A DNA stretch of 64,000 bases from Kosmotogaceae bacterium UBA1373 (GTDB taxonomy: Bacteria; Thermotogota; Thermotogae; Petrotogales; Kosmotogaceae), in NCBI GenBank assembly GCA_002305955.1, contig DBRH01000012.1, positions 27,870 through 91,869 on the forward strand. The letters are read 5' to 3'. Numbering within the stretch: position 1 is the first letter of the stretch; each line of letters opens with the position of its first letter. The position numbers and the translations under genes are program-made. The notes beneath the pieces were generated by a model. It made no database searches and was not told the origin of the DNA. It saw only the letters and a program-made list of their open reading frames with translations. This document shows positions 8,330 through 59,851 of the stretch, one piece after another.

Positions 8330-8541
8330 GAGGTTCAGGAGATGATAATATGCTTGATAGCAGTCTTGCAGGACTTCAGACATCTGTCGATCCCGTTCAA
8401 GAGATGACAGTCAGGTATCCAAGAATCCTTGTCATAAAGGCTGCATTCGCTCTTCTCAAAGATGGAAAGTCTATTGAACATAGAGATCTTGAGAAAACTC
8501 TGCAGTTGTTTCTTTCAAAATGATCGTGTATAGAGCGTCTT

Positions 8542-10422
8542 TCATTTTTTCATCCTCAGATGAAACGAGAGGTTCATTATATCCGAAGGAGTGATACCGG
8601 GTATTCTCATCGCCTGCGCGAGAGATTCCGGAGCCGTTTTTTTGAGTTTTTCCCTTCCCTCGGTCGAGAGATTGGCCACTTCATCGTAGTTCAGGGTTCT
8701 AGGAATGGACTCGTTTTCCAGCTCGCCCAGCCTGTTGATCTCCTCTTTCAACCTTTCCACATATCCACCGTACCTGGTTTCTATATCGACCTGTTCGATC
8801 AAATCTTGATCCTTAAGTGGCTGAGGATCGAATTCCTCGAGATCGTTGTATCCGATGCCGGCCCTCCTCAGCAGGGAGATGAACTTTACGGTTGTATCGA
8901 TCGCTGTGCTTCCGGCTTTAACGAGAAGATCGTTGAGTCTTCCCGAAGGTTTTATAGAAATTTTCGAGAGTCTGTCGATCTGCTTCGCGACTTCTTCCTT
9001 CAATCTGCAAATCTTTTCGAAAAACCATTTCGGTATCAGTCCATACCTGTATCCGTACTCGACCAATCTGAGACTGGCGTTGTCGTGTCTCAACAGGAGT
9101 CTGTACTCGGCCCTGGAGGTGAGCAATCTGTAAGGTTCGTCCACTCCCCTGGTGACAAGGTCGTCTATCATGACGCCGATGTAAGCCTCCGATCGCCCCA
9201 CGATCATTTGCCGGAGACCGAGCAGCTTTGCGGAGGCGTTTATCCCTGCCAGAAGTCCCTGGCCGGCGGCCTCTTCGTAGCCGCTCGTCCCGTTGACCTG
9301 ACCGGCGAAGTAGAGATTCTCGACAATCTTGCTTTCAAGCGTCGGGTACAGTTGCGTCGGATCTATGTAATCGTATTCTACGGCGTAGGCCGGCCTGACA
9401 ATCTCGGCCTTTTCAAGACCGGGGATGGTTCTGATCATCTCCAGCTGTGTTTCATAAGGCAGACTCGTGGACAGGCCATTCAGATAATACTCGTTGCTCG
9501 AAGCGCTCTCCGGTTCGACAAAGAGTTGATGGCTGTCTTTCGAGGAAAATTTTATTACCTTGTCCTCTATTGACGGACAGTAACGCGGTCCGCGTGAATT
9601 TATAAGCTTTACGTCTCCATACAGTGGAGAGAAGTGGAGGTCTCTTTTTATTATTTCGTGGGTCTTATCGTTGGTTCTCGTTAGCCAGCAAGGGTGATTG
9701 TTTTCGAGCACAAAGGGCTCGCTGAAGTGTGAAAAGGCCAGCGGAGAGCTTGACGTGTCCTGACGTTCCATCCTTTCGAAATTTATGGACCGGCCGGCGA
9801 TCCTCGCTGGAGTACCTGTTTTGAAGCGTCTTACGTTGAATCCCAGCTTTATAAGCGAACGGGATAATTCTGTCGCGGGGAACTCTCCGAGTCTTCCGGC
9901 CGGAAATTCCCTGGGGCCTATGAAGATCTTCCCTCCCAGGAAGGTCCCGGTGGTGACGATCACAGCTTTAGCCGAGTATTTTAGACCGAAGTGCGTCGTT
10001 ACGGCGACGATCCGCCCGTTTTCGGCTTCGATGTCCGTAACTATTCCGCTCTGGAGCGATAAATCGTTTTGTTCCTCAAGCTTTCTCTTCATTAGTTTAC
10101 TGTATTCGTATTTATCTATCTGTGCCCTCAGGGCCCTGACGGCCGCACCTTTGCTTGTATTCAAAACTCTTATGTTCAAAGATGTTTCGTCTGTATTTTT
10201 GGCCATCTCTCCACCCAGGGCGTCTATCTCTCTAACGACGACCCCCTTTGCGGGGCCGCCGATGGCGGGGTTGCAGGGTGCCCATCCGACCGTATCGAGA
10301 TTTATGTTCAGAACCAGTGTTCTCAGACCCATACGGGAGCTTGAAAGTGCCGCCTCTATACCGGCGTGACCGGCTCCGATGACAACTATGTCAAATTCGT
10401 AATCTCTTTTATTTGAACACAT
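8542..10422 (-). CDS. mnmG: tRNA uridine 5-carboxymethylaminomethyl modification enzyme
   Basis: 626 aa. N-terminal FAD fold [15 protein letters not shown], with full-length GidA/MnmG pattern. Confidence 0.95.
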
Positions 10423-10470
10423 AACATCACTCCTCTATCATAGTATTGTACACAGAGAGGGGGCATCGAT

Positions 10471-11865
10471 TTGAGAAAAGTCTGTTTCGTTGATACTACG
10501 ATGCGAGATGCGCATCAATCTTTACTGGCTACGAGGGTTACGACGGGTGAGCTTCTAGAGGTAGCTGCCCTGGTAGATAGAGTGGGTTACCACGCCGTCG
10601 AGGTCTGGGGAGGCGCGACCTTTGATTCCTGCGTGAGGTATTTGAACGAGAATCCCTGGGAAAGATTGGACGCTCTGAAGGGTGAGTTCAAGAACACAAA
10701 ACTCCAGATGCTTCTCAGGGGTCAAAACCTTCTCGGATACAGGAACTACGCGGATGATGTAGTCGATCTCTTCGTCGAAACGATGTCCAGGCACGGCATA
10801 GATATCGTCAGGGTCTTCGATGCGCTGAACGACTTCAGAAACCTCGAGAAATCGACTCAGGCCATCAAGAAGTACGACATGCATCTCCAGATAGCCATGT
10901 CCTATACCACTAGCCCGGTGCACAGTATCGAGTATTTCGTCGAGCTCTCCGACAGAGCGATCGAATTCGGTGCCGATTCGCTATGTATAAAGGACATGGC
11001 GGGCCTTCTAAAACCCGGTACGGCATACGAGCTCGTCTCGGAGATAAAGAAGCGGCATGCCATTCCCCTTGAAGTGCATTCCCATTTCACTACCGGCCTG
11101 GCCGACATGACTTACCTCAAGAGTGCGGAGGCCGGAGCCGACTATCTAGACACGGCAACCTCCTCTATGGCCTTCGGCACCTCGCAACCCGGTGTTGAGA
11201 GTCTCTGGACGGCACTGGCAGACATCGGGCTGGCAGAAAAGCCGGATTATAGATTGCTGGAAGAGATAAACGGTTACTTTGAAAAGGTTAGGAGAAACCA
11301 TAAAGGTACCGACGCCGGATTCACCATCAACACTTCCGTGCTTGAAAACCAGATCCCCGGAGGGATGTATTCGAACCTGATAAATCAGCTGAAAGCGCAG
11401 AACATGCAGGAAAGATTTCCCGAGGTTCTTGAAGAGGTTCCCAGAGTCAGAGAGGAGCTCGGCTATCCGCCACTGGTTACCCCCACCTCGCAGATCGTCG
11501 GTGTTCAGGCGGTTCTCAACGTTATAACAGGCGAGAGGTACAAGATGATAACCAAAGAGGTGGAGAAATATATCAAAGGACTTTACGGCAAACCACCCGC
11601 AGATGTCTTCTCCGAATTGAAGAAGAGAGTTCTCGGAGATGGTGAACCCATATCTTTCAGACCGGGCGATGCGATAGAACCGGAGGTGGAGAAGGGCAGG
11701 AAAGAACTGGGTCTGCTTGCCAGGAACGACGAGGATCTCTTGATATATCTCCTGCTCGGAGAGGTCGGCAAGAAGTATCTTTACGAGAAGTACAGGGAAG
11801 ACCTGAAGATAGATTTCGATATTGCCAGGGATTATCAGGACGGTATGACGGTTTATCCAGTTTAA
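10471..11865 (+). CDS. oxaloacetate decarboxylase alpha / transcarboxylase 5S-type carboxyltransferase subunit (no biotinyl domain)
   Basis: 464 aa. Begins VCFVDTTMRDAHQSLLATR (HMGL-like carboxyltransferase barrel). Ends without an AMKM biotin domain. TTG start. Confidence 0.85.
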   Translation: MRKVCFVDTTMRDAHQSLLATRVTTGELLEVAALVDRVGYHAVEVWGGATFDSCVRYLNENPWERLDALKGEFKNTKLQMLLRGQNLLGYRNYADDVVDLFVETMSRHGIDIVRVFDALNDFRNLEKSTQAIKKYDMHLQIAMSYTTSPVHSIEYFVELSDRAIEFGADSLCIKDMAGLLKPGTAYELVSEIKKRHAIPLEVHSHFTTGLADMTYLKSAEAGADYLDTATSSMAFGTSQPGVESLWTALADIGLAEKPDYRLLEEINGYFEKVRRNHKGTDAGFTINTSVLENQIPGGMYSNLINQLKAQNMQERFPEVLEEVPRVREELGYPPLVTPTSQIVGVQAVLNVITGERYKMITKEVEKYIKGLYGKPPADVFSELKKRVLGDGEPISFRPGDAIEPEVEKGRKELGLLARNDEDLLIYLLLGEVGKKYLYEKYREDLKIDFDIARDYQDGMTVYPV

Positions 11866-12074
11866 AGTACGGTTTTGAAAGCGAAACAAATGAAACCATA
11901 TTCGATTTTCTAAAGAAGAGAAAACATACAGTATTTCCACTTATACGCCTCTAATTGCCCGTGGGTAAGATTTTTCTCACTGCCACAGTGTGAACATTAA
12001 TAATTAGAAGACTGGATTTCTGGTAAAATTTTTGTAAGGCGATACGCCAATAACCACAAAGGAGGTTCTAAAGA

Positions 12075-13265
12075 ATGAAAAAACTCACGGCAGTTCTTAT
12101 CATTCTGCTTGTAGCTATGTCTTTTGCCAGTGCAAAGCTCGTCATCTGGTCTTCGGAAAATCAGATACCCGCACTCGAAAAACTTGCTGCAGATTTTGAA
12201 AGCGACTACGGTATTCAGGTCGAGATACAACAGGTGAATTTCGGCGACATTAAATCGAAGTTTCTAACGGCCGCTCCGGCCGGAGAGGGACCGGACATAA
12301 TAGTCGGTGCCCACGACTGGGTAGGAGAACTGGCCATCAACGGTCTTATCGAACCGATTCCCTTCCTTCCCGACAGAGAGCAGTATTACGAAGTTGCTCT
12401 GGATGCTTTCAATTACGGCGGGAAACTTTACGGAGTTCCATACACGATCGAAGCCATAGCGATCATTTACAACAAAGACCTGGTTTTCGACGTACCCAAA
12501 ACACTGACAGAGCTAGAACAGCTCGCCCTTGAAGCCAGCGATGACGAAGTGGTCGGCTTTATCTACACAGCCGGAGACTTCTATCACTCGGCTCCCTTCA
12601 TACTGGGAAGAGGCGGATATATATTCAAGGAAACATCTGCCGGACAGGATGTCAAAGATATCGGCCTTAGCAACCAGGGTGCGGTCGCCGGTGGTAATTT
12701 GATTAAGTCCTGGTTCGACAAGGGGCTCATCCCCGGCGGACCGAACTACAACCTCATGGATTCTCTGTTCAAGGATGGACTGGCGGCCTTCATCGTCAAC
12801 GGTATATGGGCTACACCGAGCTACAGAGACGCCGGAATCGACTATGCTATAATTCCTTTCAGCGAAATTGCCTTCGACGACGGCACCACGCCGAGACCCT
12901 TCGTCGGAGTTCAGGGGTTCATGATAAACGCCAAATCTTCGAACAAACTCGAAGCCACAGAATTCGTGGTCAATTACATCGGTAGCTACGAAGGTCAGTA
13001 CGGTATGTTCCTTGGTGAGAGAAGGGGAACGGCCAGAGCCGACGTATTTGCGTTCATTGAAGCGGGCGCCGGTCCGGAGCTTTACGATGTTCTTCAGTTC
13101 TCCAAGAGCGCTTCCGTCGGTACCCCGATGCCGAACGTTCCGGAAATGGCAAGTGTCTGGGGAGCCATGGGTGACGCGCTTGGCCTCATAATCAACGGCC
13201 AGGACACCGTGGAAAACGCGTTGAGCGCAGCAGTTGAAAAGATCAAGACCACTATAGGCAATTGA
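12075..13265 (+). CDS. malE: maltose/maltodextrin-binding periplasmic protein
   Basis: 396 aa. Signal sequence MKKLTAVLIILLVAMSFASA. KLVIWSS..., GPDIIVGAHDWVGEL and GVPY motifs of the MalE family. AAAGGAGG RBS. Confidence 0.85.
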   Translation: MKKLTAVLIILLVAMSFASAKLVIWSSENQIPALEKLAADFESDYGIQVEIQQVNFGDIKSKFLTAAPAGEGPDIIVGAHDWVGELAINGLIEPIPFLPDREQYYEVALDAFNYGGKLYGVPYTIEAIAIIYNKDLVFDVPKTLTELEQLALEASDDEVVGFIYTAGDFYHSAPFILGRGGYIFKETSAGQDVKDIGLSNQGAVAGGNLIKSWFDKGLIPGGPNYNLMDSLFKDGLAAFIVNGIWATPSYRDAGIDYAIIPFSEIAFDDGTTPRPFVGVQGFMINAKSSNKLEATEFVVNYIGSYEGQYGMFLGERRGTARADVFAFIEAGAGPELYDVLQFSKSASVGTPMPNVPEMASVWGAMGDALGLIINGQDTVENALSAAVEKIKTTIGN

Positions 13266-48897: not shown

Positions 48898-49224
48898 ATG
48901 GACGAAAAGAAGTTGATGTCTCTCCTGGGAATCGGTAGAAAAGCAAACAAGGTTGTGTTTGGCAAGGATCAACTGAGAAGTTATTTGAGGCAGCCGGTTA
49001 AAAACAAAATACTTTTTCTGGCGAGCGATACCAGTGCTTCCATAAAAGAAGACTGGATTTCAAGATGCAAAAGCCACGGTGCCAGGTGCGTCCTCCTCAA
49101 AGAACACGACCGTATCGCTCTGGGAAAAGCCATCGGAAAGAACAACATATCGGCGGTAGCGATATCCGACGGTGGTTTAGCAGAGGAGATTTCAAAGATG
49201 ATGACGCAGGCGGGAGGTGACTGA
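48898..49224 (+). CDS. L7Ae-family RNA-binding protein (YlxQ-like)
   Basis: 108 aa. GIGRKANKVVFG pattern. Its position immediately upstream of infB matches ylxQ. Confidence 0.7.
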   Translation: MDEKKLMSLLGIGRKANKVVFGKDQLRSYLRQPVKNKILFLASDTSASIKEDWISRCKSHGARCVLLKEHDRIALGKAIGKNNISAVAISDGGLAEEISKMMTQAGGD

Positions 49225-49228
49225 GCTT

Positions 49229-51313
49229 ATGCCAAAGGCCAGAGTGTACGAGCTTGCTAAAAGATTAAATATATCGGCAAGAGAACTGCTGGATGAGCTG
49301 GAAGAGCTCGGTGTTACTGTCAAGAACCATATGTCGGTTCTCGACGATGAAACTGTGAATATCATAGTGGGCCTCTATGAAGAAGAGAAAAAAGAAACGG
49401 CGAGAAAGAACGAAAAGGCCAAGATTAAGGTTCAGGAAAAGGAAGTCAAAAAGCTCGAAAAGAAGCTCGTTTCCAAGGAGGAGACGCCCCTGGAGAAAAA
49501 GGCTCCTGTCCAGCAGGCGGCCAGAACGATAAAACTCAAAAGCGATGAATTCAAACTCGATACGCTGGCCAAGAAGATGAATATTCCAATTTCGAAGATA
49601 ATCAAAGACCAGTTCATGAAAGGCATAATCCTGAGACCGGGACAGATACTTTCCATGGACGACACGAGAAACATCGCCTCTCAGTACGAATGGGAAATAG
49701 AACTCGTTCAGGAAGACGAAGTTAATCCCTTCGAGAGGCTCGTAGAGTCCTACCAGAACACCTACCGGGAGGGGGTCAGGCTGGTTCAGAGACCGCCAGT
49801 GGTCACTGTGATGGGTCACGTTGACCACGGAAAGACAACGTTGCTCGACAGGATAAGGAAGGCTAAGGTCGCCGAAGGTGAGATCGGGGGCATAACACAG
49901 TCCATAGGTGCGTACCAGGTAGAGATAAGGGGTAAGAAGATAACCTTCATCGATACGCCCGGCCACGAAGCCTTCACGGAGATGAGGGCGCGCGGTGCAC
50001 AGGCTACGGATATCGTGGTTCTGGTAGTGGCAGCGGACGACGGCGTTATGCCGCAGACCATAGAGGCTTACAATCACGCGAAAACCGCTAACGTACCAAT
50101 AATCGTCGCTATAAATAAGATAGACAAACCCAACGCCAACATCGACCTCACGAAGCAGCAACTGGCTTCGAAGCTGGGCCTGGTTCCGGAAGACTGGGGA
50201 GGCGACACCGTTACCGTTCCCGTATCTGCCAAAACCGGCAAAGGAGTCGAAGACGTCCTCGAGATGATTCTACTGGTCGCCGAGGTGGCCGATATAAAGT
50301 GCATACCTCAGGGTCATGCGCGCGGGATAATCATCGATTCCAGGCTAGACAAAGCTGTGGGGCCTCTGGCCACGCTGGTTGTGAAGGACGGAGTGCTGAA
50401 GGCCGGAGATTACGTAGTCGCCGGTAGTTCGGCCGGAAGGGTCAAGGCGCTGATAAACGAGAACGGCAAGCGGATTAAAGAGGCACATCCCTCTGATCCC
50501 TTACAGATCATCGGTTTCGATGAAGTACCGGACGTCCACAGTATCGTCTACGTTGTGGACGATCTCGATACTTCCAGAGGCCTTTCCCAGTACAGCAAAG
50601 GCCAGCTACAGAAAGAGAAGTCGGTAACCAACAAGCGCCACGTTCGACTGGAGGAGTTCCTCTCGATGACCGGAGAATCGAACGAGAAGAAAGATCTCAA
50701 GCTCATACTCAAAGCCGATTCTTTTGGAACCGTCGAAGCTCTGAAGCAGGCCATGTTGAAACTGGAAAATACAGATGTACGAATAGAAGTTGTGCACTCG
50801 GGGATAGGCTCGGTTAATTCCAGCGACGTTATGCTCGCGTCGGCCTCCGATGCCGTAATAATGGGTTTCAAGGTCAAACCCGACGCTCAAGCCCGTCGCC
50901 AGGCCGAAGTGGAGGGTGTACAGATAAAGGTTTACGAGATCATATTCAATCTTATCGACGATCTGAAGAAAGCGCTAGAAGGCTTGCTGGAACCTGAAGA
51001 GGTTGAAGAAGTGACCGGCCGGGGACATGTAAAGAAGATCTTCAAGATCAGCAAGGTCGGTACGATTGCCGGTGTTCAATTGATCGAAGGACACGTCCTC
51101 AAAAAGGGGAAGATGCGCGTCTATAGAAACAACGAGGAGATCGCCGATACAGATATAGAGTTTCTCAAGCACTACAAAGACGACGCGAGTAGGGTCGATG
51201 CGCCCAAGGAGTGTGGAATAAAGGCCGTAGGATTCGACGAATTCGAAGATGGCGATCAGCTGGAGTTTCACACCAAAAAGAGCGTCAGGAGAACCATAGA
51301 TTTCAACGAATAG
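49229..51313 (+). CDS. infB: translation initiation factor IF-2
   Basis: IF2-N ([13 protein letters not shown]). G domain ([24 protein letters not shown]). C-terminal domains are present. The ATG at 49229 follows GGGAGGTGA by 8 nt. Confidence 0.95.
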
Positions 51314-51332: not shown

Positions 51333-51941
51333 TTATTGAGGGCCCTTTTCCTGTACGGAGAGAGCCCTTTTTCTTTTCTTCCTTGAAGTCTCGACTCTGT
51401 CCAGTAGAAGGTGCAGGAAGTACCCGGTAGTCCCCGCAAGCGAAAGGAAACCTATCTCCGTATAAGAGAAGTTCCCGGCAGAAGCCCCCGATCTGGGGAG
51501 CAGAAGAGCAAGAACGATAGCGCCGTAGAGCAGCCCGGCCCATATTGTGTGAAAGAAACCCCTGTGGCTCAGTAAATCTAGAATCTTTGAGGTCACAATT
51601 CCGCAAATTATCGCCATTGAAAAGGAAATGGTCACCGCAACCGGAAGAGAGTAGATCCATGAAAGGAGGATTGGTTGAATCTTTGGTGATATAAGCGAAG
51701 AATATATAATGGATGAGACTACTCCGGCTATCATCACCTCAAGTGTACGTTTTATAAGTGCCTGTTTCGAATCGATGTCCGGCAGATCGCTCCCCAGAAT
51801 GTAGAGGAGGTAACCTGTCCCGATAATCCGACTATCGACGATAATTGGAAGTTTGGCGATCTCTATGATCAACATAGCAACGAGCATATACACCGGATAG
51901 GAGAAGAGCCCCCACGTCACGTGCGTTTTGAAGTCAGGCAT
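51333..51941 (-). CDS. DUF457 / YdjM-like membrane-bound metal-dependent hydrolase
   Basis: MPDFKTHVTWG, GSDLPDIDS and LSHRGFFHT motifs. The ATG at 51941 overlaps the upstream gene by 8 nt. The tracked start at 52022 is too early. Confidence 0.65.
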   Translation of the reverse strand: MPDFKTHVTWGLFSYPVYMLVAMLIIEIAKLPIIVDSRIIGTGYLLYILGSDLPDIDSKQALIKRTLEVMIAGVVSSIIYSSLISPKIQPILLSWIYSLPVAVTISFSMAIICGIVTSKILDLLSHRGFFHTIWAGLLYGAIVLALLLPRSGASAGNFSYTEIGFLSLAGTTGYFLHLLLDRVETSRKKRKRALSVQEKGPQ

Positions 51942-52449
51942 CGCAGATTCCCCCGAACTTCTCGCCGCTGCTGGAAACATCGACGAAGAAGAGAACATCC
52001 TTGAGAGATACACTGAGGCCACATTCGATTTCTTCCGGGACCTCCCGGTCGGTATCGACAGGCGAGAGAACCTTCCTGTTACACAACGAAAAGTTTACCC
52101 TGGAAAAACGCCTGTAGATATCGAACATCTCCTTATCGCTTATATCCAGACCCGCGGTCGCCGTAACGCCGGACATGAAAAGGTATTCTAGATCGTCGGG
52201 ATCGATATCGGCCGGTTCCTGACTCAAACCGGTTTCAACGGACGCACAGAAGAAGAGTATCTCTCTGGAAAGGTTCAGCAGGGGCGTTCCCTCGAGTTTC
52301 TCGTACATCCGGTACTTATCTATCGTATTTTCGTTGGCCAGAAGCACACGGCCGCTGTACTGGATAAGATCGCCAGCCTTGAGCTGCCTTATATTTTTGA
52401 TGGATATCGGGTAGAACATCTTCAGGGTCTGTCTGGCCGTCTCACTCAC
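51934..52449 (-). CDS. hypothetical protein with degenerate Fe-S hydro-lyase beta (Fumerase_C-like) pattern
   Basis: 171 aa. LKAGDLIQYSGRV... follows the spacing of class-I fumarase/tartrate dehydratase beta subunits, but the conserved RDxAH and GP(T)T positions are not kept. No alpha subunit is nearby. Confidence 0.45.
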   Translation of the reverse strand: MSETARQTLKMFYPISIKNIRQLKAGDLIQYSGRVLLANENTIDKYRMYEKLEGTPLLNLSREILFFCASVETGLSQEPADIDPDDLEYLFMSGVTATAGLDISDKEMFDIYRRFSRVNFSLCNRKVLSPVDTDREVPEEIECGLSVSLKDVLFFVDVSSSGEKFGGICDA

Positions 52450-53317
52450 CCCGCTTCTTCAGGGGAAAATAGTTTTCGATCTGATCTACCATACTTGCGA
52501 GGGTTCTTTCTACGCATCCACAGTAGAACTCGTACAGATGCGGCAAAGCCGGCAAGATCTCCCTGGCCCGCACCAGATCTATCTCGAAAACCGTTGCGAC
52601 GGGCCGGTCTATACGCATATCCGGGGTGACGCTGGCTATCCTGAGAGTGCCGTATTTTCTGGTGACTTCGGATCTGAAAAGCCTTGAAAGCTCCATGACC
52701 ACAGATTTATCGATGTTTCTTTCGGACTTCGGCAGACCGAAGGCAATCTTCAAAACGTTTTGAACCGGGAAGATGAAGACCTCGCCGGAAGGGAACTCCA
52801 GCCATCTCCTGTAGTTCTTGATGCAGATATCGATGAGCTCTCCGTCTATGAGTTCCGGGAGCCGGAAATACTCCTTTCCCCTCAGAGAGTCCTTCAGAAT
52901 CTCCCTCTTCAGAAGTCTCTCGTTTCCATAGTAAGAAAGGAAGTAGAGCTTTAGGGGAGTCTGAAAGATCGCTCTCTGGAATGTCAGTTCGGCATCACCG
53001 AAGAAATCCGAGAAAGCCTCCCTCATCTCTTCGGCCTCTTCCTTTCCAAACCTGTAGAGGGCACTGGCGGTTTCGAATGGAGAGGAGTTTGAAAGTCCGC
53101 AGAAGCCCCTGCCCTCGCTATCTACGAAAATCGATAGAACCGGGAAATCCCTCCTCATCGTCTGAACGACCAGAGTCATGAAATGTCCAAAGGCGTTGTC
53201 GAGCTTGTCGGAACGCTCGTTCACAAGGCTTCCGATCTCCATGAACCTTCCACTTATGCTGTTGTAAACTCTCTCAAGCCTGTTTCTGTAACTCTCCGGT
53301 CCTGCATAGTAAATCAA
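52442..53317 (-). CDS. orphan hypothetical protein (about 292 aa)
   Basis: The tracked ORF (start 53545) overlaps the VWA gene by 232 nt. A TTG at 53317 overlaps the VWA stop (TTGA) and is preceded by GGTGGTG. No family recognised. Confidence 0.5.
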   Translation of the reverse strand: MIYYAGPESYRNRLERVYNSISGRFMEIGSLVNERSDKLDNAFGHFMTLVVQTMRRDFPVLSIFVDSEGRGFCGLSNSSPFETASALYRFGKEEAEEMREAFSDFFGDAELTFQRAIFQTPLKLYFLSYYGNERLLKREILKDSLRGKEYFRLPELIDGELIDICIKNYRRWLEFPSGEVFIFPVQNVLKIAFGLPKSERNIDKSVVMELSRLFRSEVTRKYGTLRIASVTPDMRIDRPVATVFEIDLVRAREILPALPHLYEFYCGCVERTLASMVDQIENYFPLKKRGE

Positions 53318-54513
53318 CTCAGAAACACCACCGACGATTTGCCATAAATGGATCTGGCTTCCGAAGCGAAATCGGAATTGTGGCTCTTCGGAAGTACGAA
53401 CAACACCCTTCTGGCAACCGACGGGAGATCCGTATAGCCGTCGGTGAAGATTATCAACCCTTCCGGCCTCAGGTTTTCCTGTGAGTAATCTACGGCCGGT
53501 TGAAGATCGGTCTCTCCCCTGCCCACCAACTTGAGGTCTCTCCACATACCCTTGCCATACTTCATCACGCTCTGGACGGTCTCATCGACCTGTACCAGCC
53601 AGATTCTGGAATCGGTGATTCGGGTCACCGCATCTATTTCACCGAAGAAAGCGTTGAATTCGTCTTCTATGACGCTACCGCTGGTATCGACCACCACAAC
53701 CAGCTTGGCCGCGTAGTCGCTTTTCCAGCCCGGTTGATCATCGTAGCGCCTGTTCGGTCTCATAGGGGTTCTGTATCTACCCACGTAGGTCGATGAACCG
53801 AAAAACCTTCGTATCACGTTCCTCCAGTCGAGCACGGGATTGTCGAGAACCAGTTTCATTACCTCTTCCAGACCTTCAGGCATTCCCGCCCTCGCCTTTT
53901 CCAGCGTTTCGGAGACGACCTGCTTCAAAAGATCTTCGATAAATTCTTTCGGCAGTTCGAAGCTGCCAAAATCTTCGTGAGAATCCACTCTGGAGAGATT
54001 ACCCTCGAGAAGTTCGAGGTCGATGGATCTATTTTTTCTCATAAAGTCCATTGCCCACGAATGGTAGAACTCAGCCGTCTCGCCCGGGTGGGCCATGGGC
54101 GGACCGGCGAAGAATCTCTCGTTGTCGGTGCCACACCCCTCCGAAAGCAGAGAGTCCAGAGGAAGACTGAAGGCGTCCAGCTCAGGTATGTACTGATTCA
54201 CCGCCGCATCCATAGAGAGATCCCATACGACTTTCTCTCTGGACCTGTTCACGGGAATCAATATATGTCCATTCACTATGTGGAGACATTCATGTTTCAA
54301 CAGAGCCTTTGTAAAGGCCAGAGGTTTGTTGCCCAGAACGTCCGGGTTGTAGAGTAACTGAAACCTTCCTCTCGATGTCACGCGCAGCCTGACGGTTCTT
54401 GTGGCTGAGGAAGGTATTCTATCAACGAAAAGGAGCAAGAAGTTGTAGAAAGGGCTTTCCTTCCCCAGTTCAAAAACGGCACGTTCCATCAGTTCTTCAT
54501 TTTGCACTCTCAT
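53314..54513 (-). CDS. VWA-domain protein with N-terminal HExxH putative metallopeptidase domain (DUF2201-type)
   Basis: 399 aa. LLKHECLHIVNGH (HExxH) in the N-terminal half. MIDAS-like VVVVDTSGS plus FTDG in the C-terminal half. Confidence 0.75.
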   Translation of the reverse strand: MRVQNEELMERAVFELGKESPFYNFLLLFVDRIPSSATRTVRLRVTSRGRFQLLYNPDVLGNKPLAFTKALLKHECLHIVNGHILIPVNRSREKVVWDLSMDAAVNQYIPELDAFSLPLDSLLSEGCGTDNERFFAGPPMAHPGETAEFYHSWAMDFMRKNRSIDLELLEGNLSRVDSHEDFGSFELPKEFIEDLLKQVVSETLEKARAGMPEGLEEVMKLVLDNPVLDWRNVIRRFFGSSTYVGRYRTPMRPNRRYDDQPGWKSDYAAKLVVVVDTSGSVIEDEFNAFFGEIDAVTRITDSRIWLVQVDETVQSVMKYGKGMWRDLKLVGRGETDLQPAVDYSQENLRPEGLIIFTDGYTDLPSVARRVLFVLPKSHNSDFASEARSIYGKSSVVFLS

Positions 54514-55600
54514 GGCTCCCCTGAAGGAATTTCATGACGTCGTGATCCATCGCGAGCTCTTCGAGGAGATTTTCGAAGAGAGCACGCTTCAGGCCTTTTT
54601 CTCCTTCCATCTGGTGGACTATATGCCTGATGATCGAGAAGAAAGAGTCTCTCGGGATCACTCTCCCTATTTCGAGAAGGTTTCCCGCGATCCTCGGAAC
54701 CATCTGGAAGTACTCCTGAACCTGCATTTCGTCGAGCTCCGAAAGATGTCTGGTTATTCTCATGACGGAGGCGCTGATCCCGGATATGTCACTCTGGGAG
54801 ATTCTCTTCAAAATACTGTCGTCCAGTTCCATGAGCAGGGTTCTGGGAGAGGGGAGGAGCTGGTTGCCCTGTATCTTGCTCATGAAAGTTCTGGCGGCTT
54901 CTGGTCCGACAATTCCCGCGGCCAGCACGTAGCCGTACTTTTCTATCTCGTCACTTTCGAGGATACCGAAGACCCTTCCGAGTTTGTACCAGCTTCTCGG
55001 ACTTGGCCTGAGTTCCAGTCTCATCGAAACGATTGTATCCCTGGAAAGGAATTCGGGGTACTCTCCGATGAATCTGGTGACACAGTCGGGAACGTTTTGA
55101 GTTTTCGACCATCTCAGCCATTCTTCGGGATCGGGAGTCAATTCTATATGAAAGAACCTTGACATGAAGGCCGGGTCGGTTATGAGTTCAACCTGGTCGT
55201 ACTCCTCGTCTGGCGGGTTGGCGGCAGCGATTATCCAGCTGTCCTCGGGTAGAAAATGGTTGTGTATTCGCTTGTCAATGAGAAGCTGCATTATGGCGTT
55301 CCTGATAGACCTGTGGGCTCTGTTGACCTCGTCGATCATAAGTATCACGTTTCCATCGGTCGGCCACCAGTCCGGTCTCAAAAACAGCGTCCGTTCCCCG
55401 TCTCTGGAAGGCATCCCTATTAGATCTCCCGGTTCCATCTGGGAGATTACAAGTATCACCAGTTTCCTGCCGGTCTCTTCTGCTAGCTCTCTGGCAAGGT
55501 CAGTCTTGCCCACTCCGAAATGCCCCCAAAGGAGCGGTATCTCTCCGGCCTCCATGATCTTCCTGCTAAGATACTTAACGTCTTGAGCTTTCAACAACAT
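54497..55600 (-). CDS. MoxR-like AAA+ ATPase (AAA_5 type)
   Basis: 367 aa. Walker A GHFGVGKT, Walker B ILMIDEVN followed by the RA..S..N..MQLL sensor region, and a helical C-terminal extension of about 150 aa. No GAFTGA loop. Confidence 0.8.
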   Translation of the reverse strand: MLLKAQDVKYLSRKIMEAGEIPLLWGHFGVGKTDLARELAEETGRKLVILVISQMEPGDLIGMPSRDGERTLFLRPDWWPTDGNVILMIDEVNRAHRSIRNAIMQLLIDKRIHNHFLPEDSWIIAAANPPDEEYDQVELITDPAFMSRFFHIELTPDPEEWLRWSKTQNVPDCVTRFIGEYPEFLSRDTIVSMRLELRPSPRSWYKLGRVFGILESDEIEKYGYVLAAGIVGPEAARTFMSKIQGNQLLPSPRTLLMELDDSILKRISQSDISGISASVMRITRHLSELDEMQVQEYFQMVPRIAGNLLEIGRVIPRDSFFSIIRHIVHQMEGEKGLKRALFENLLEELAMDHDVMKFLQGSHESAK

Positions 55601-55617
55601 CCCTCCAAAAACCTCAT

Positions 55618-57249
55618 TCAGACAAAATTATAGCACAGTGACTTTAACGATGCCCAGATGATACCGGCCCACAACAGAAACGGTATGGCCATTCCGAAGA
55701 GCCAGGTCCACGGGTCGGCGGCTGGAAGATTCAAAAAACCCAGAAATGAGGCTATGCCACCGGTAGTGTACATAGCCAGGGGAAGCGTCGTGAAGACTGG
55801 TAGAAGAGTCGATAGAACGAACGAGATCACAGCGCCGGCAAGTGTGAGAGCCTTGAAAACGTTACTCGTATCCCTGGTACCGAAGCTCTTTTCGAGATAG
55901 CCGCCCAGCAGCGACAGCGAGAATATCGTGGGAAGCATGAAGAAGAGAAAAGTGAACATGAAATTCCTGTAAACCGAGGCTTTCGATACCACATAAAGCC
56001 CGACCAGGAATATGATGAGCGAGTAAAGAAATGTGACTATCGAGGCTTTCGATATAACCACACCGACCCTTTTCACCGGGAAGAGAAAGCCATTATCGCC
56101 CAGCTGTCTTTCGAAGGCGAAAAGTGCCGTTGAAGAGACGGTAGAATAGTTACTGAAGAGGAAGACGATCAATCCCAGTAATTGCAGTATTCCGAAACTT
56201 CTCAGGAGTGCGGGGTTGACCATAACGACCACAGGTACGAAGAGAGAGGGATACAGAAAGGCGAAAGTGAGTTTTGGCTCTCTAATCAGAAGGAGAAAAT
56301 CCTTTTTCAAGATTCCGGAGAAGGAATGCGATCGGCCACGACTAGCTCTTCTGAAGTCTTTTGTAGAACCTGTCGGCTGCGTCAGCAGCTTTTGAACGAC
56401 TCCAGGGTATAGAAAAAGCTCAAGAAATTCGAGGATCGCCACTATCGCAAGAGAGTAAAGCAAGAATAGAACCACATCGCCGATCTCTCCTACAATTGCC
56501 CTGACGAAGGGTGTCCAGGGCAGGTAAGGGGCCGTTATCACTCCCTGAAGTGTGCCAAACTGCTCTGCCACACGGTCGGGTCTGGCGAGATCTATGGCCG
56601 AGAAGTCCATGAACCTAAGTGTAAAGATGAACGTGAAGAGTGTCACCATAGTCATTATCGAGGAGAGAACTTTGAGGAATCTGCCCCTGGAGAGGAAAAC
56701 TACCGCGAAAGATATCACGCTTGTAATGCACAGGATATCTATAACGAAGACGAGGAGCAGAACCAACGCCAACCAGAACCGGGACCCGGAAAAACCCAAT
56801 CCGCTCAGGGCTGCCAGAAAGACCGGCACAAACAGCAGAACCGGCAAACCGCCGGTGGTGAGGACTTCGGAAATCTGTACCTTGGCAATGGTCGATTTCT
56901 TGACGGGCATCTGTAGTAGTAGTTTAACTCTGTTGGAAAAGAAGAGATTCGAAATGACTATGGGGAGATCGCTGCCCAGAAGGATCGAGAAGATGATCGC
57001 AGAAAAAAACGTTATGACTATCATTTTCAGATCTATGCCGGTCAGTTCCCTCAACTGATCGGACAGTCCGGCAATCCTCGAAAAGTTGGGGATGAAGTAT
57101 CTCCTCATATAGAAAATGAGCGGAACACTGACCATAACCAAAAAGATAATCGCCAGAGAAGAGACGAGTATGGTTTTCTTTCCCTGGCGGGTGACCAGTC
57201 TAGCGTTTTCTTTGCTTCTCCACTTAACTATGATAAAGAAATCTTTCAT
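55618..57249 (-). CDS. polytopic membrane protein (about 12 TM), family not securely recognised
   Basis: 543 aa, almost entirely hydrophobic segments in two halves. It resembles permease-only exporter-like proteins, but no ABC ATPase is adjacent. The RBS is weak. Confidence 0.65.
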   Translation of the reverse strand: MKDFFIIVKWRSKENARLVTRQGKKTILVSSLAIIFLVMVSVPLIFYMRRYFIPNFSRIAGLSDQLRELTGIDLKMIVITFFSAIIFSILLGSDLPIVISNLFFSNRVKLLLQMPVKKSTIAKVQISEVLTTGGLPVLLFVPVFLAALSGLGFSGSRFWLALVLLLVFVIDILCITSVISFAVVFLSRGRFLKVLSSIMTMVTLFTFIFTLRFMDFSAIDLARPDRVAEQFGTLQGVITAPYLPWTPFVRAIVGEIGDVVLFLLYSLAIVAILEFLELFLYPGVVQKLLTQPTGSTKDFRRASRGRSHSFSGILKKDFLLLIREPKLTFAFLYPSLFVPVVVMVNPALLRSFGILQLLGLIVFLFSNYSTVSSTALFAFERQLGDNGFLFPVKRVGVVISKASIVTFLYSLIIFLVGLYVVSKASVYRNFMFTFLFFMLPTIFSLSLLGGYLEKSFGTRDTSNVFKALTLAGAVISFVLSTLLPVFTTLPLAMYTTGGIASFLGFLNLPAADPWTWLFGMAIPFLLWAGIIWASLKSLCYNFV

Positions 57250-57699
57250 AACTATATTCTGCCATAAATAGGCTCAGCATTTATTTATTGTTCTCAAAAT
57301 TAGTATCGCTCTATGAACTGTTGTGGGTTGTGGGTAAGAGCGAAAATGGTGACTGACGTGCTCCTGGCGTCTGTTGTACCCGATTTTCGGCATCTCTCTC
57401 CTCTTCTCGCACTCCTTAACCAAGAACCTGGACACGCAGCATCGTCGAACAACAGTTCTTTCGCTCTTTCGAAGGATGCCGGATCGGAGTCCGGCATGAC
57501 GGGAAGGGACTATAATCCCGTGAATGCCCAAGCACTGTCATCCCGTAATAGCCTGCCCTGAAATGATCCTATTCAGGGTTCTAATACGGGGGTCTCGCCC
57601 TTCCGTTCTTTCTAAGGACGGGTCCATGATCTGGGACGAAGAACCAAGGACGGCCCCTAACGTGCGGATCATCTCGTGTCTTTTTCTTGAACAAAGGCT
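57250..57699. other. 450-bp noncoding, helix-rich region (candidate structured RNA; strand unresolved, + favoured)
   Basis: No credible ORF or RBS. Hairpins at 57475-57498, 57499-57521 and 57556-57578 (the last enclosed by 57542-57547/57585-57590). Two 10-bp long-range complements: 57315-57324/57449-57458 and 57336-57345/57459-57468. Confidence 0.45.
57600..57623 (-). repeat. 24-nt repeat, inverted copy of 60099-60122 (21/24 identical)
   Basis: Minus strand ACCCGTCCTTAGAAAGAACGGAAG versus plus strand AGCCGTCCTTGGAAAGAACAGAAG at 60099-60122. Confidence 0.7.
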
Positions 57700-58380
57700 T
57701 TACTCGAGCAGTCCGTAAGCTTCATCGACCAGCTGAGTGAAGATGATTCCTTTACCCGGCTCGTCTATTCTGAGAGTCTCTCTTATATTGGCTATGATCT
57801 TTTGAGTTGTGTCTCTCTTTGAAACGATCATAACAATTTCCTTCTCAGGCTCTATTTCCATCGCGAATAACTTGCTTCTTTCGTGAATTCCGGAACCTCT
57901 TGCGTTTACTATCGTTCCACCCTTAGATCCCGCCTCAGTGGCAGCGTCGATAACTTTTTCAGCATTTCCTTTGTCAACTATTACGGTAATCAAGTGACGC
58001 ATTGTCTTTTCTTCACCTCTTTCTTTTTCGGGCAAGGAGAGCTCAAGCTCTCTTGACCCTTCCACGTCGCAGATGCCAGTAGTGAAAGCAATTCCGTGAT
58101 TAGGCCGGTCGAATCTCATTTCGTTATTGAGAGCTTCGAGTGCTGTCTGCGCTGTTTCACCGTCAGCAACCATCATAACGATTTCCTTTCGGCTCTCGTA
58201 AAATGCGAAAAAGTTCAGTGTCCCATTTCTGATGGTACCTCTCCCCAGAAGTATCGTGCCACCGCTTATCCCTTTTTCCTTTGCTATTCGAAGAACATCG
58301 CTTCCCCGGCCGAAGTTCACAACTACGTATATGAGTCTGAAAACATTACGATTCTCGAGAGTCGTCACTGGATTCAACAC
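57700..58380 (-). CDS. tandem P-II-like (GlnB-fold) signal-transduction protein
   Basis: 226 aa with two repeats of about 105 aa (IYVVVNFGRGSDVL...GGTILLGRGT and ITVIVDKGNAEKVI...GGTIVNARGSG). Start uncertain (35-nt overlap with the upstream gene). Confidence 0.7.
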   Translation of the reverse strand: MLNPVTTLENRNVFRLIYVVVNFGRGSDVLRIAKEKGISGGTILLGRGTIRNGTLNFFAFYESRKEIVMMVADGETAQTALEALNNEMRFDRPNHGIAFTTGICDVEGSRELELSLPEKERGEEKTMRHLITVIVDKGNAEKVIDAATEAGSKGGTIVNARGSGIHERSKLFAMEIEPEKEIVMIVSKRDTTQKIIANIRETLRIDEPGKGIIFTQLVDEAYGLLE

Positions 58381-59851
58381 CTCTTTTTCTTATCTTCATC
58401 TTGTATATTAACCCCAGTATCTGTAGAGCGATAATGGGTGTCATTGCAACCATGGATATAAGACCGAAGGCATCCAGGAGAATGTTCGCTCCGTCAACGG
58501 CTCTGACGGCGCCTTGAGCAAAAGCGAGAACAAACGTTCCTATCATCGGACCAGAAGCAACACCTCCCGCATCGAAAGCTATTCCGACGAAAAGCTTCGG
58601 AGAGAAAAATGAGAGGAATATGGAAATCACATAGCCCGGAAGAAGAAAATGCCACAGCTGGATGCCTGGGACCACGATTCTCACCATGGAAAAGCCAACT
58701 GCCAGACTGACGCCCGCCGAAAGGGCGACAAGGACTATTCTTCTCTTCACGGCGCCGCTTGTAACATCCTCTATCTGATGAGTGAGGACGTAAACCGAAG
58801 GTTCTGCGAGGATTGTCACAAGGCCCAGGATGAAGCCGACGATTACAACAAATGCCTTGTTGCCCGTCGATGCTATTCCGTATCCGATTTCTCTGCCAAC
58901 ATCCATGAACCCGGCATTGACCCCGACCAGGAAAATCACCATACCAAGAAAAGTGAAGAACAGTCCGAACGTTATCTGTCTCACCGATCTCCTGGATAAC
59001 CTCAAGGAGGTCAGCTGAAGCAGCAAGAAAGTCAACAGTATGGGCAGCAACGAAAGCAGTACTTCTCTGGCAATACCGGGTACCGGCCCGAAGAAGTATC
59101 CCAGAATCGCAGTTGATTCTGATACGAGGTAATCCGGGGCAGATTCCATGCTGGTATTGTTGGATACTATACCGATAAGCAGTACTGAGATGATCGTTCC
59201 GGCGGAGGCAACTCCCAGGAGTCCAAAGCTGTCGTTTTCAGACGATCTACTGTCTCTTTTGAGTATAGAAATACCTAATGCAAGCGTGAGAATGAAGGGT
59301 ACGGTCATTGCCCCGGTAGTGGCTCCAGAAGCATCAAAGGAGATCGCCAGGAACTCTCCCGAAGAGAAGAGCGAAAGAACGAGTATTATTCCATAAAACA
59401 CAGTCATCAGTTTTTGCAGAGCGACGTTATAGACGATTCTCACAAGTCCAAAAGCGAGAAAGACTGCAATACCAATTGATGCGGTGATCACGATGCTCCC
59501 GCTAGAAAGCAAGCCTGAAGACACTAGCTCGACTTGAGAGGCATGAATGTGTAAGGCCGGTTCGGCAATCGATATGAAGAAGCCAAGTACAAACCCCAAA
59601 GCGGCTATAATCCATACCTTGTTTGTCTTGGCGATGAAATTACCCATGAAGTGCCCGATTGGGCTTATTCCTATGCTGACTCCGAAAAGAAATAAAGACA
59701 TCCCGACAACGATCAAGAAAGAACCTATAACAAATCTAATTATGAGCCACCAACTCAATGAGACGAACAGGAAGTTCAGTACCAGAACCAGTACTGCAAT
59801 CGGGATAACGGAAAACAGAACTTCCTTAAGCTTCTCGGTGAGTAAACTCAA
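58346..59851 (-). CDS. DUF1538-family polytopic membrane protein (duplicated domain)
   Basis: 501 aa, two homologous multi-TM halves. TTG start with an AGGAGA RBS. The family call is from memory of the DUF1538/P-II gene pairing. Confidence 0.65.
   Translation of the reverse strand: MSLLTEKLKEVLFSVIPIAVLVLVLNFLFVSLSWWLIIRFVIGSFLIVVGMSLFLFGVSIGISPIGHFMGNFIAKTNKVWIIAALGFVLGFFISIAEPALHIHASQVELVSSGLLSSGSIVITASIGIAVFLAFGLVRIVYNVALQKLMTVFYGIILVLSLFSSGEFLAISFDASGATTGAMTVPFILTLALGISILKRDSRSSENDSFGLLGVASAGTIISVLLIGIVSNNTSMESAPDYLVSESTAILGYFFGPVPGIAREVLLSLLPILLTFLLLQLTSLRLSRRSVRQITFGLFFTFLGMVIFLVGVNAGFMDVGREIGYGIASTGNKAFVVIVGFILGLVTILAEPSVYVLTHQIEDVTSGAVKRRIVLVALSAGVSLAVGFSMVRIVVPGIQLWHFLLPGYVISIFLSFFSPKLFVGIAFDAGGVASGPMIGTFVLAFAQGAVRAVDGANILLDAFGLISMVAMTPIIALQILGLIYKMKIRKRGVESSDDSRES

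Follow-up and report, generated by a model that had tools for sequence, protein, structure and literature searches.

A 64,000-nucleotide (nt) stretch of contig DBRH01000012.1 from Kosmotogaceae bacterium UBA1373, hereafter called the window, carries a cluster of six genes that includes a MoxR-class AAA+ ATPase and a protein joining an HExxH motif to a von Willebrand factor A (VWA) domain. A preliminary description, made from the sequence alone, took the six genes for parts of one membrane-associated machine. Our comparison across Thermotogota shows that the conserved unit is the trio AAA-VWA-DUF4895 and not the six genes. The reading that we prefer, and hold tentatively at somewhat less than an even chance, is that the cluster represents a housekeeping module for protein remodelling, of the MoxR-VWA kind and inherited vertically in Thermotogota, and not a set of six equal partners.

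The six open reading frames (ORFs), numbered here in window coordinates, are all on the minus strand, and all were present as the preliminary description had stated:

55618-57249, minus strand: membrane protein with about 12 transmembrane segments (12-TM), 543 amino acids (aa), from the ORF call; first gene of the cluster
54497-55600, minus strand: MoxR-class AAA+ ATPase, 367 aa, from the ORF call; orthologue of Thermotoga maritima TM0930
53314-54513, minus strand: DUF2201 HExxH+VWA protein, 399 aa, from the ORF call; orthologue of TM0929
52442-53317, minus strand: DUF4895 protein, 291 aa, with a TTG start that matches homologues; orthologue of TM0928
51934-52449, minus strand: Fumerase_C-like protein, 171 aa, GTG start, from the ORF call
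51333-51941, minus strand: YdjM/DUF457 membrane protein, 202 aa from its ATG; last gene of the cluster, convergent with infB

The longest ORFs at the DUF4895 and YdjM genes are 367 and 229 aa, respectively, and the TTG start of the DUF4895 gene overlaps the VWA stop codon as TTGA.

The evidence that carries our reading is gene order. A synteny survey was anchored on the VWA protein and covered 51 species-level genome loci plus loci from protein look-ups, all annotated with iterated hidden Markov models (HMMs) of all six proteins. The genes for AAA, VWA and DUF4895 stand next to one another in about 35 of about 55 distinct genome loci, and likewise in deep-branching lineages. The remaining genes are nested by clade: YdjM joins the locus only in Kosmotogales, the 12-TM gene only in Kosmotogaceae, and the Fumerase_C-like gene is found at this position only in the Mesotoga clade. 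The arrangements are as follows:

All six genes in order: the window, loci L002, L009, L010 and L019, and 10 metagenome loci
Five genes, without the Fumerase_C-like gene: six Kosmotoga-type loci
12TM-AAA-VWA-DUF4895: L011 and L012
AAA-VWA-DUF4895-YdjM: L020, L036 and L037
AAA-VWA-DUF4895: Thermotoga, Pseudothermotoga and deep-branching lineages
AAA-VWA only: Petrotoga
VWA alone at the locus: Marinitoga, Thermosipho and Fervidobacterium

The complete six-gene order thus recurs in 4 other genome loci and 10 metagenome loci, and its conservation is beyond chance. The source of the window groups with Mesotoga-like Kosmotogaceae, and metagenome contigs match the window segment at 100% identity. Co-occurrence of the genes in related genomes, which the preliminary description had put forward as a check, holds for the trio; the six-gene unit did not survive it, as the three other genes are clade-restricted additions. 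The phylum-wide trio with DUF4895, and its expansion by membrane proteins in Kosmotogaceae, are new here.

The trio can also be traced where it is split. In the Fervidobacterium metagenome-assembled genome (MAG) JBCNVJ01, the VWA gene stands alone beside mutS2 on contig 75 (L056), and an AAA orthologue (HMM E value of 2e-170) and a DUF4895 gene lie 2 kb apart on contig 17 (L085). Therefore, the trio is kept even when it is dispersed. Just a urocanase gene lies between AAA and DUF4895 in L085, and a TPM-phosphatase gene follows.

In T. maritima, TM0930, TM0929 and TM0928 form an orthologous trio with the same order and the same overlaps as in the window. TM0930 (AAD36011) adjoins TM_0929 and TM_0928, and the window ATPase is 51% identical to it over 358 residues, full length (E value of 7e-135). 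The T. maritima locus differs in holding the trio only, followed by ferredoxin and dnaA genes, whereas the window adds the 12-TM gene upstream and the Fumerase_C-like and YdjM genes downstream. As cited in PMC9964418, the classification of Snider & Houry (2006) names a MoxR subfamily after TM0930. AAA65436.1, an early GenBank record of 620 aa ("orf1; upstream of ferredoxin"), falls into the cluster of TM0929 and appears to be a fused conceptual translation across TM0929 and TM0928.

VWA orthologues with 38-97% identity are found in Mesotoga, Kosmotoga, Marinitoga, Petrotoga, Thermotoga, Pseudothermotoga, Thermosipho and Fervidobacterium, and identity drops sharply to 29% beyond Thermotogota. 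Housekeeping genes (infB, groEL, dnaA, ribosomal protein genes and lysS) flank the cluster and trio loci, and no Thermotogota-type copies were found in IMG/VR. These observations speak for vertical, phylum-wide inheritance of the module.

This distribution bears on a possible role as an anti-phage or other conflict system of the vWA-MoxR type, with the membrane proteins or the unrecognised proteins as effectors. Pairs of vWA and MoxR proteins are the cores of described conflict systems (PMC7159879), and pairs homologous to the one in the window occur in N4-like phages, jumbo phages and plasmids. The ternary systems share with the window cluster a MoxR-vWA pair and a conserved third protein, and a metallopeptidase domain is occasionally found on their vWA protein. 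However, those systems are patchy and tied to multicellular lineages (Kaur, Burroughs, Iyer & Aravind 2020, PMC7159879), and the module described here shows the opposite of patchy defence islands: it is vertical, phylum-wide, set in housekeeping neighbourhoods and without viral copies. The extra domain of the window protein is N-terminal, whereas effectors in the conflict systems are C-terminal to vWA (PMC7159879). PADLOC matches were weak and generic for AAA only, and Pfam detected no VMAP, iSTAND, FtsH or beta-propeller domain among the six gene products. Thus, the window cluster does not belong with the ternary systems in its third component, in a C-terminal effector or in a patchy distribution. 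Because of phylum-wide vertical inheritance and the lack of a PADLOC family match, we consider a conflict system very improbable.

The ATPase matches AAA_5 (PF07728) over residues 23-149 with 38.7 bits against a cut-off of 22 (E value of 1e-9). Walker A (WGHFGVGKT), Walker B (DE(V)N), AANP, TDPAFxSRF and RPSPRSW are invariant in 38 orthologues; we take the motifs beyond the Walker boxes to be those of sensor 1, the arginine finger and sensor 2. The AAA_5 score, the motif set and orthology to TM0930 place the protein in the MoxR class, in agreement with the preliminary description, and it looks like an active ATPase under strong constraint. The NCBIfam models gave weak generic AAA matches only, with no specific affinity for NorQ or CbbQ.

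The adjacent protein belongs to the DUF2201 family, because both Pfam domains score above cut-off in N-to-C order: PF13203 (DUF2201_N) over residues 9-122 (37.5 bits against 23.2, E value of 3e-9) and PF09967 (DUF2201) over residues 271-379 (57.5 bits against 26.4, E value of 2e-15). The combination of HECLH and a VWA domain with a metal ion-dependent adhesion site (MIDAS) in one protein was thus recognised correctly, and all four motifs named earlier (GHFGVGKT, MIDEVN, HECLH and DTSGS) are present in the translations. The protein consists of an N-terminal zincin-like HExxHxxxxH domain, a PNRRY..PGW stretch and a compact C-terminal VWA domain. Its MIDAS is complete: all 51 orthologues and the phage outgroups keep D276, S278, S280, T335 and D358. 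In orthologues, the PNRRY..PGW stretch immediately preceding the VWA domain is nearly invariant, and outgroups at 28-30% identity retain the MIDAS residues together with the N-R/P-G core of this stretch.

The zincin-like motif of the window protein is HECLHIVNGH. Its histidines (H74, H78 and H83) are invariant in the 51 orthologues and the phage outgroups, and E75 gives way to Q or H in 5 of the 51 (Pseudothermotoga loci L042-L045 and Thermotogaceae locus L035). Because the glutamate is lost in these cases and the histidines never are, hydrolysis would be dispensable in some lineages. This pattern, which is new here, speaks for a role in binding a metal or a client more than for obligatory proteolysis. 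Loss of the glutamate with retention of the histidines also gives a concrete way to tell these two roles apart by experiment.

The same site is the basis for another explanation, in which the trio is a split ATP-dependent metalloprotease with FtsH-like logic: the AAA+ ring would unfold the substrate, the HExxH domain would cleave it and DUF4895 would serve as adaptor, at the membrane in Kosmotogaceae. FtsH is a membrane-anchored fusion of an AAA+ domain of the classical AAA clade to an M41 zinc protease. The likeness (an AAA+ ATPase, an HExxH zinc site and membrane association) is one of functional logic only. In the window, the ATPase is of the MoxR clade, it and the HExxH domain are separate polypeptides bridged by the VWA domain, and there is no sequence relationship to FtsH. 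An intact HExxHxxxxH motif in the window protein, in 46 of 51 orthologues and in phage relatives is expected of a protease, and Pfam describes DUF2201_N as a putative metallopeptidase domain. A Peptidase_M16 gene follows the pair in jumbo-phage contigs, and an Rce1-like protease gene lies downstream of the trio in one Thermotogaceae clade. However, the five orthologues with an altered catalytic glutamate are otherwise well conserved, and sequence and profile searches of the PDB detected no solved relative or peptidase relative of the VWA protein. To our knowledge, characterised MoxR ATPases remodel clients and do not thread them into a protease, which we count against this explanation. Overall, we regard a split protease as unlikely. 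The earlier statement that the pairing of HExxH and VWA domains in DUF2201 proteins has no assigned function agrees with our searches, which produced neither a functional paper nor a solved relative.

The third protein of the trio had been described as a 292-aa orphan. It is 291 aa long and a member of a named family, DUF4895 (PF16236), with a score of 80 bits (cut-off of 25). When 1.84 billion representative proteins were searched exhaustively with a profile, only 30 DUF4895 clusters emerged, and every named member that was checked is from Thermotogota. An AlphaFold2 (AF2) model has a mean predicted local distance difference test (pLDDT) score of 70, with 80-93 in the C-terminal half and mostly less than 60 in the N-terminal half. 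Its best fold matches are ARPC2 and ARPC4 (subunits of Arp2/3) and type III secretion chaperones, which share the alpha/beta fold that SCOP calls "secretion chaperone-like", and DUF4895 accordingly models as two secretion-chaperone-like domains. Across the phylum, the family has almost no invariant polar residues and no conserved catalytic residues. Because of the predicted chaperone/ARPC-like fold and the near-absence of invariant polar residues, DUF4895 is more likely to be an adaptor or holder than an enzyme. The idea that the unrecognisable proteins are clients or effectors is therefore weakened for this protein, which looks like an adaptor. The model had no significant match among viral structures in BFVD, and searches of the PDB by sequence and profile found nothing for DUF4895.

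The status of the three peripheral genes depends on how much weight is given to packing. The genes of the cluster are separated in order by a 17-nt gap and then by overlaps of 17, 4, 8 and 8 nt, as reported before and confirmed by the ORF listing, and this coupling had been taken to suggest one machine. However, in a crude gene call for the window, which took the longest non-overlapping ORFs with a minimum of 100 aa, 28 of the 39 pairs of same-strand neighbours are no more than 20 nt apart, and 19 overlap. Close packing is the norm for this genome and hence no evidence for a machine; translational coupling cannot carry the argument, and conservation of gene order must do so.

These numbers fit an operon of convenience, in which only AAA and VWA, perhaps with DUF4895, cooperate, and the 12-TM, Fumerase_C-like and YdjM proteins are unrelated housekeeping products of a shared transcript. 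Most Thermotogota lack the three peripheral genes at this locus, homologues of the Fumerase_C-like gene sit within an unrelated gene run in L031 and L033, and long mixed housekeeping operons surround the trio elsewhere. A promoter-like site also lies immediately upstream of the AAA gene. Set against this explanation is the persistence of two of the three genes. The 12-TM gene is never found away from AAA-VWA in 13 genome and 16 metagenome loci, at identities down to 43%, and YdjM is retained after DUF4895 across Kosmotogales while DUF4895 identity sinks to 39%. In addition, a second, unrelated membrane hydrolase family holds the same position in another clade. We therefore consider an operon of convenience a serious contender, although still improbable.

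The 12-TM protein has about 12 hydrophobic segments, which appear as about 12 peaks in a hydrophobicity profile and bear out its earlier description as a 12-TM membrane protein. The window protein has no Pfam match. Precomputed annotation assigns orthologues to PF09847 (12TM_1), and two orthologues score above the threshold of PF16949, whose sole annotation is "putative ATP-binding cassette". Wherever the contig suffices, the 12-TM gene is followed by AAA-VWA with DUF4895 next; the metagenome scan seeded with the 12-TM protein reached relatives of at least 43% identity only. A motif in the protein, KKDFLLLIREPK, raised the idea that it consists of fused halves of an ABC-2 permease. We rejected this idea, as there was no repeat, no profile similarity and no Pfam match. 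An hhalign comparison of the N-terminal and C-terminal halves gave a probability of 0.1%, with no internal 6+6 duplication; comparison with Thermosipho ABC-2 permeases gave 0.1-0.2%; and none of six 12-TM orthologues matched the ABC2_membrane Pfam families.

The last protein of the cluster is a member of the YdjM/DUF457 family (PF04307, 38.7 bits against 29, E value of 9e-10). The earlier assignment to DUF457 is thereby upheld, and the protein is polytopic with His/Asp motifs. H7, SD.PD.D, HRG..H and H...D are strongly conserved in 14 orthologues. We know of no YdjM/DUF457 member for which hydrolase activity has been established. A literature match to "DUF457" is irrelevant: it arose from the prefix of DUF4579, a name that occurs in a CRISPR Cap1 preprint.

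A different membrane protein is associated with the trio in one Thermotogaceae clade. In L031 (where the arrangement spans 8429-12530), L035, L038, L039 and L052, a gene for a DtxR-type (Fe_dep_repr_C) metal-dependent repressor overlaps the AAA start, and in L031, L033, L039 and L052, an ORF of 194-197 aa overlaps the DUF4895 stop. Pfam identifies the L031 copy of this ORF as an Rce1-like CPBP membrane protease. Thus, a membrane hydrolase family unrelated to YdjM stands at the place that YdjM holds in Kosmotogales. The arrangement hints at metal-dependent regulation and at a membrane-hydrolase partner.

The 171-aa protein had been called degenerate Fumerase_C-like. The likeness is weak and confined to the N-terminus, and family membership fails, as scores are far below cut-offs. 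NCBIfam models match only the N-terminal ~60 residues, with E values of 0.004-0.08 and 13-17 bits against cut-offs of 145-269. A profile of the family matched PDB entries 7xky_B and 5dni_A (fumarate hydratase/TtdB beta subunit) with an E value of 0.035, aligning residues 12-75 to 8-71, and Pfam Fumerase_C was found in one of nine relatives (E value of 0.15). The apparent likeness to the beta subunits of Fe-S hydro-lyases (the FumA C-terminus and TtdB) is remote and partial, if co-linear. No gene for an alpha (Fe-S) subunit adjoins the 171-aa gene, whose neighbours in the window are DUF4895 and YdjM. A word-indexed search found homologues only in Mesotoga-like sources, and distant copies occur in two Thermotogaceae MAGs (L031 and L033), 3-4 kb downstream, between a Methyltransf_4-family methyltransferase gene (TrmB-like) and a UDP-GlcNAc 2-epimerase gene. 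The AF2 model of this protein was unusable (pLDDT of 47).

Known MoxR-VWA systems provide the model for how the module could work. NorQ/NorD, CbbQ/CbbO, RavA/ViaA and CoxD/CoxE each place an AAA_5-type ATPase beside a protein with a C-terminal VWA/MIDAS domain and an N-terminal client-side domain. Membrane complexes are among their clients, and metal insertion is one of the results (PMC9976466, PMC13036017, PMC3893208). In NorQ/NorD, an extension or finger of the VWA protein plugs the AAA+ pore, surface carboxylates of the client are required, and ATP hydrolysis strains the NorD linker, leading to insertion of iron into membrane-bound NOR (PMC9976466, PMC13036017). RavA/ViaA acts on membrane respiratory complexes (PMC3893208, PMC10585395). 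The module in the window differs from these pairs by its zincin-like HExxH domain, its much shorter VWA domain and its dedicated third subunit, DUF4895, and no respiratory, Rubisco or other client operon lies near the window locus.

The sequences show the domain identities, the intact MIDAS and catalytic motifs, the orthology to TM0928-0930 and the nesting of the synteny. By analogy with NorQ/NorD, CbbQ/CbbO and RavA/ViaA, we infer ring formation, VWA docking, client capture by the MIDAS and a membrane client. The TM0930-type ATPase would form an ATP-hydrolysing hexameric ring on which the C-terminal VWA domain of the DUF2201 protein docks, with its MIDAS gripping an acidic group of the client. 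The N-terminal zincin-like domain may hold a metal ion through its three invariant histidines, and DUF4895 may act as a non-enzymatic two-domain adaptor or client-holding subunit. ATP hydrolysis, transmitted via the VWA subunit, would remodel the client, most likely so that it is matured, metal-loaded or regulated rather than only degraded. In Kosmotogaceae, the trio would be co-expressed with the 12-TM protein and with YdjM, a putative metal-dependent hydrolase, as its likeliest membrane partners or clients. The Fumerase_C-like protein joined late, in the Mesotoga clade, and we doubt that it takes part.

Several observations weigh against the remodelling-module reading. Gene overlap in the cluster is only what this genome shows in general. 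Petrotoga loci carry AAA-VWA without DUF4895, only VWA is present at the locus in Marinitoga, Thermosipho and Fervidobacterium, and the partners missing from the VWA locus were confirmed elsewhere in the genome in one MAG only. Outside Kosmotogales, the neighbours of the trio vary (ferredoxin and dnaA, polysaccharide genes or RNase T), so the membrane link may be lineage-specific or coincidental. The VWA domain is compact, and the fold call for DUF4895 comes from a medium-confidence model (pLDDT of 70) with a weak N-terminal half and TM-scores below 0.5. A literature search produced nothing functional on TM0928-TM0930, DUF2201, COG3864, DUF4895, PF09847 or PF16949.

MoxR-VWA pairs are widespread, and clients are known for only a handful. 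The TM0930 subfamily and its DUF2201 partner are conserved throughout the phylum, and homologous pairs are found in N4-like and many jumbo phages. The window locus is the richest genomic context found here for the pair, as it supplies a dedicated third subunit and two candidate membrane partners. This context turns an "unknown chaperone" into a short list of testable interactions.

Relatives of the AAA-VWA pair are common in phages. The ATPase corresponds to phrog_1297 (E value of 2e-55) and the VWA protein to phrog_1314 (E value of 7e-44), both as full-length profile matches, and the two families are paired in 156 phage records, including those of N4-like Schitoviridae. In Schitoviridae, in a Moorella phage and in jumbo phages from IMG/VR, the two genes lie side by side and overlap. 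The annotation of the ATPase of Sinorhizobium phage ort11 notes a similarity to N4 gp24, and the DUF2201 gene is next; by position and annotation note, the phage pair thus holds the place of N4 gp24/gp25. N4 gp24 and gp25 are middle transcripts (PMC4193335). The phage version is the same two-gene module, with conserved HExxH and DxSGS motifs; it differs in being only 24-29% identical and, in jumbo phages, in being followed by Peptidase_M16. This phage affinity of the engine pair of the trio is new here. PHROG produced no matches for the DUF4895, 12-TM or YdjM proteins.

The nearest relatives of the VWA protein beyond Thermotogota (29% identity) come from contigs, up to 316 kb long, that are listed as viral in IMG/VR; the gene order there is AAA_5-DUF2201-Peptidase_M16. 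These jumbo-phage relatives may reflect ancient exchange between phages and an ancestor of Thermotogota. The conserved run in these contigs (L060-L063, L082 and L088-L109) includes PurA, IMPDH-like, AAA_5, DUF2201, Peptidase_M16, PDF or Thy1, HSP20, KH and HU genes. Plasmid-borne pairs are found in either gene order, or with VWA after a hypothetical protein, and have unrelated neighbours. Phage DUF2201 proteins are widely labelled "HNH endonuclease" or "homing endonuclease" (NC_027348.2, NC_023719.1 and OR602862.1), and PHROGs labels phrog_1314 likewise. Because phrog_1314 gives a full-length match to a protein with HExxH and MIDAS motifs, its profile suggests that the endonuclease label is a propagated misannotation.

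The remodelling-module reading can be carried one step further, although we think this extension rather unlikely. The trio could be an undescribed housekeeping machine of the whole phylum, in which a MoxR ring works together with a metal that histidines hold on a zincin-derived domain. Its targets for loading or remodelling would be polytopic membrane hydrolases, namely YdjM in Kosmotogales and, in some Thermotogaceae, Rce1-like CPBP proteins. N4-like and jumbo phages would have acquired the two-gene engine for a corresponding step of infection. If this is true, a function for an entire MoxR subfamily, and for a gene pair conserved in N4-like phages, would follow from a single experiment on TM0928-0930.

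The cluster is flanked by the convergent infB gene (49217-51313) on its downstream side and by an intergenic region of 450 nt on its upstream side. Two features are relevant to its transcription:

55627-55656, minus strand: sigma-70-like site TGGGCA-18-TATAAT with TG, within the 3' end of the 12-TM gene and just upstream of AAA
57250-57699, no strand assigned: intergenic region of 450 nt upstream of the first gene, presumed promoter region

The site at 55627-55656 is the top-scoring promoter-like match (10 of 12 positions, a consensus match only) and is a possible internal promoter. Promoter-like and terminator-like counts in the cluster region are not above shuffled expectation. The final ~20 nt of the intergenic region (TTTATGGCAGAATAT) are common to Mesotoga locus L002. 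The region has no Rfam match at a lenient threshold and no excess RNA structure (folding z-scores of +0.8 and +0.5); therefore, its short inverted repeats are not evidence for a structured leader. On the plus strand, 57313-57606 contains a low-plausibility ORF of 82 aa and then a terminator-like hairpin with a T-rich tail (57586-57606). This segment likewise has no Rfam match and no excess folding energy; it may represent a short antisense or divergent transcript or have no significance.

Other observations concern the flanks of related loci. Upstream of the lone VWA gene in Marinitoga and Fervidobacterium are ORFs of 190-226 aa, which we rejected as truncated AAA or DUF4895 genes because neither HMMs nor Pfam matched them. 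The Fervidobacterium ORF begins with a hydrophobic, signal-like segment. The Marinitoga ORF of ~190 aa (MMLEIERKY...; L007/L008 7441-8013 and L023 9600-10010) overlaps the VWA start by 13 nt. It has no Pfam match, and its ExExK-like start bears a possible likeness to CYTH domains. In Thermosipho (L041, L046 and L059), an ABC-2 family permease gene (PF12698, E value of 2e-23) lies 13-15 nt after the lone VWA gene, which in L046 is preceded by a gene for a GH114-like protein. A conserved ORF of 92-97 aa lies between YdjM and the convergent infB in Kosmotoga (L001 9501-9779, with equivalents in L014-L018); it has a weak, below-cut-off match to the Colicin_V family (E value of 9e-4) and is absent from the window.

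In the window, two minus-strand genes at 57700-59851 lie between groEL and the cluster. They encode a DUF1538 membrane protein (two repeats, E value of 1e-126) and a 226-aa protein with a P-II domain, and they overlap by 35 nt. The pair has the look of an insertion, since groEL comes directly before the cluster in the Mesotoga loci L002 and L009.

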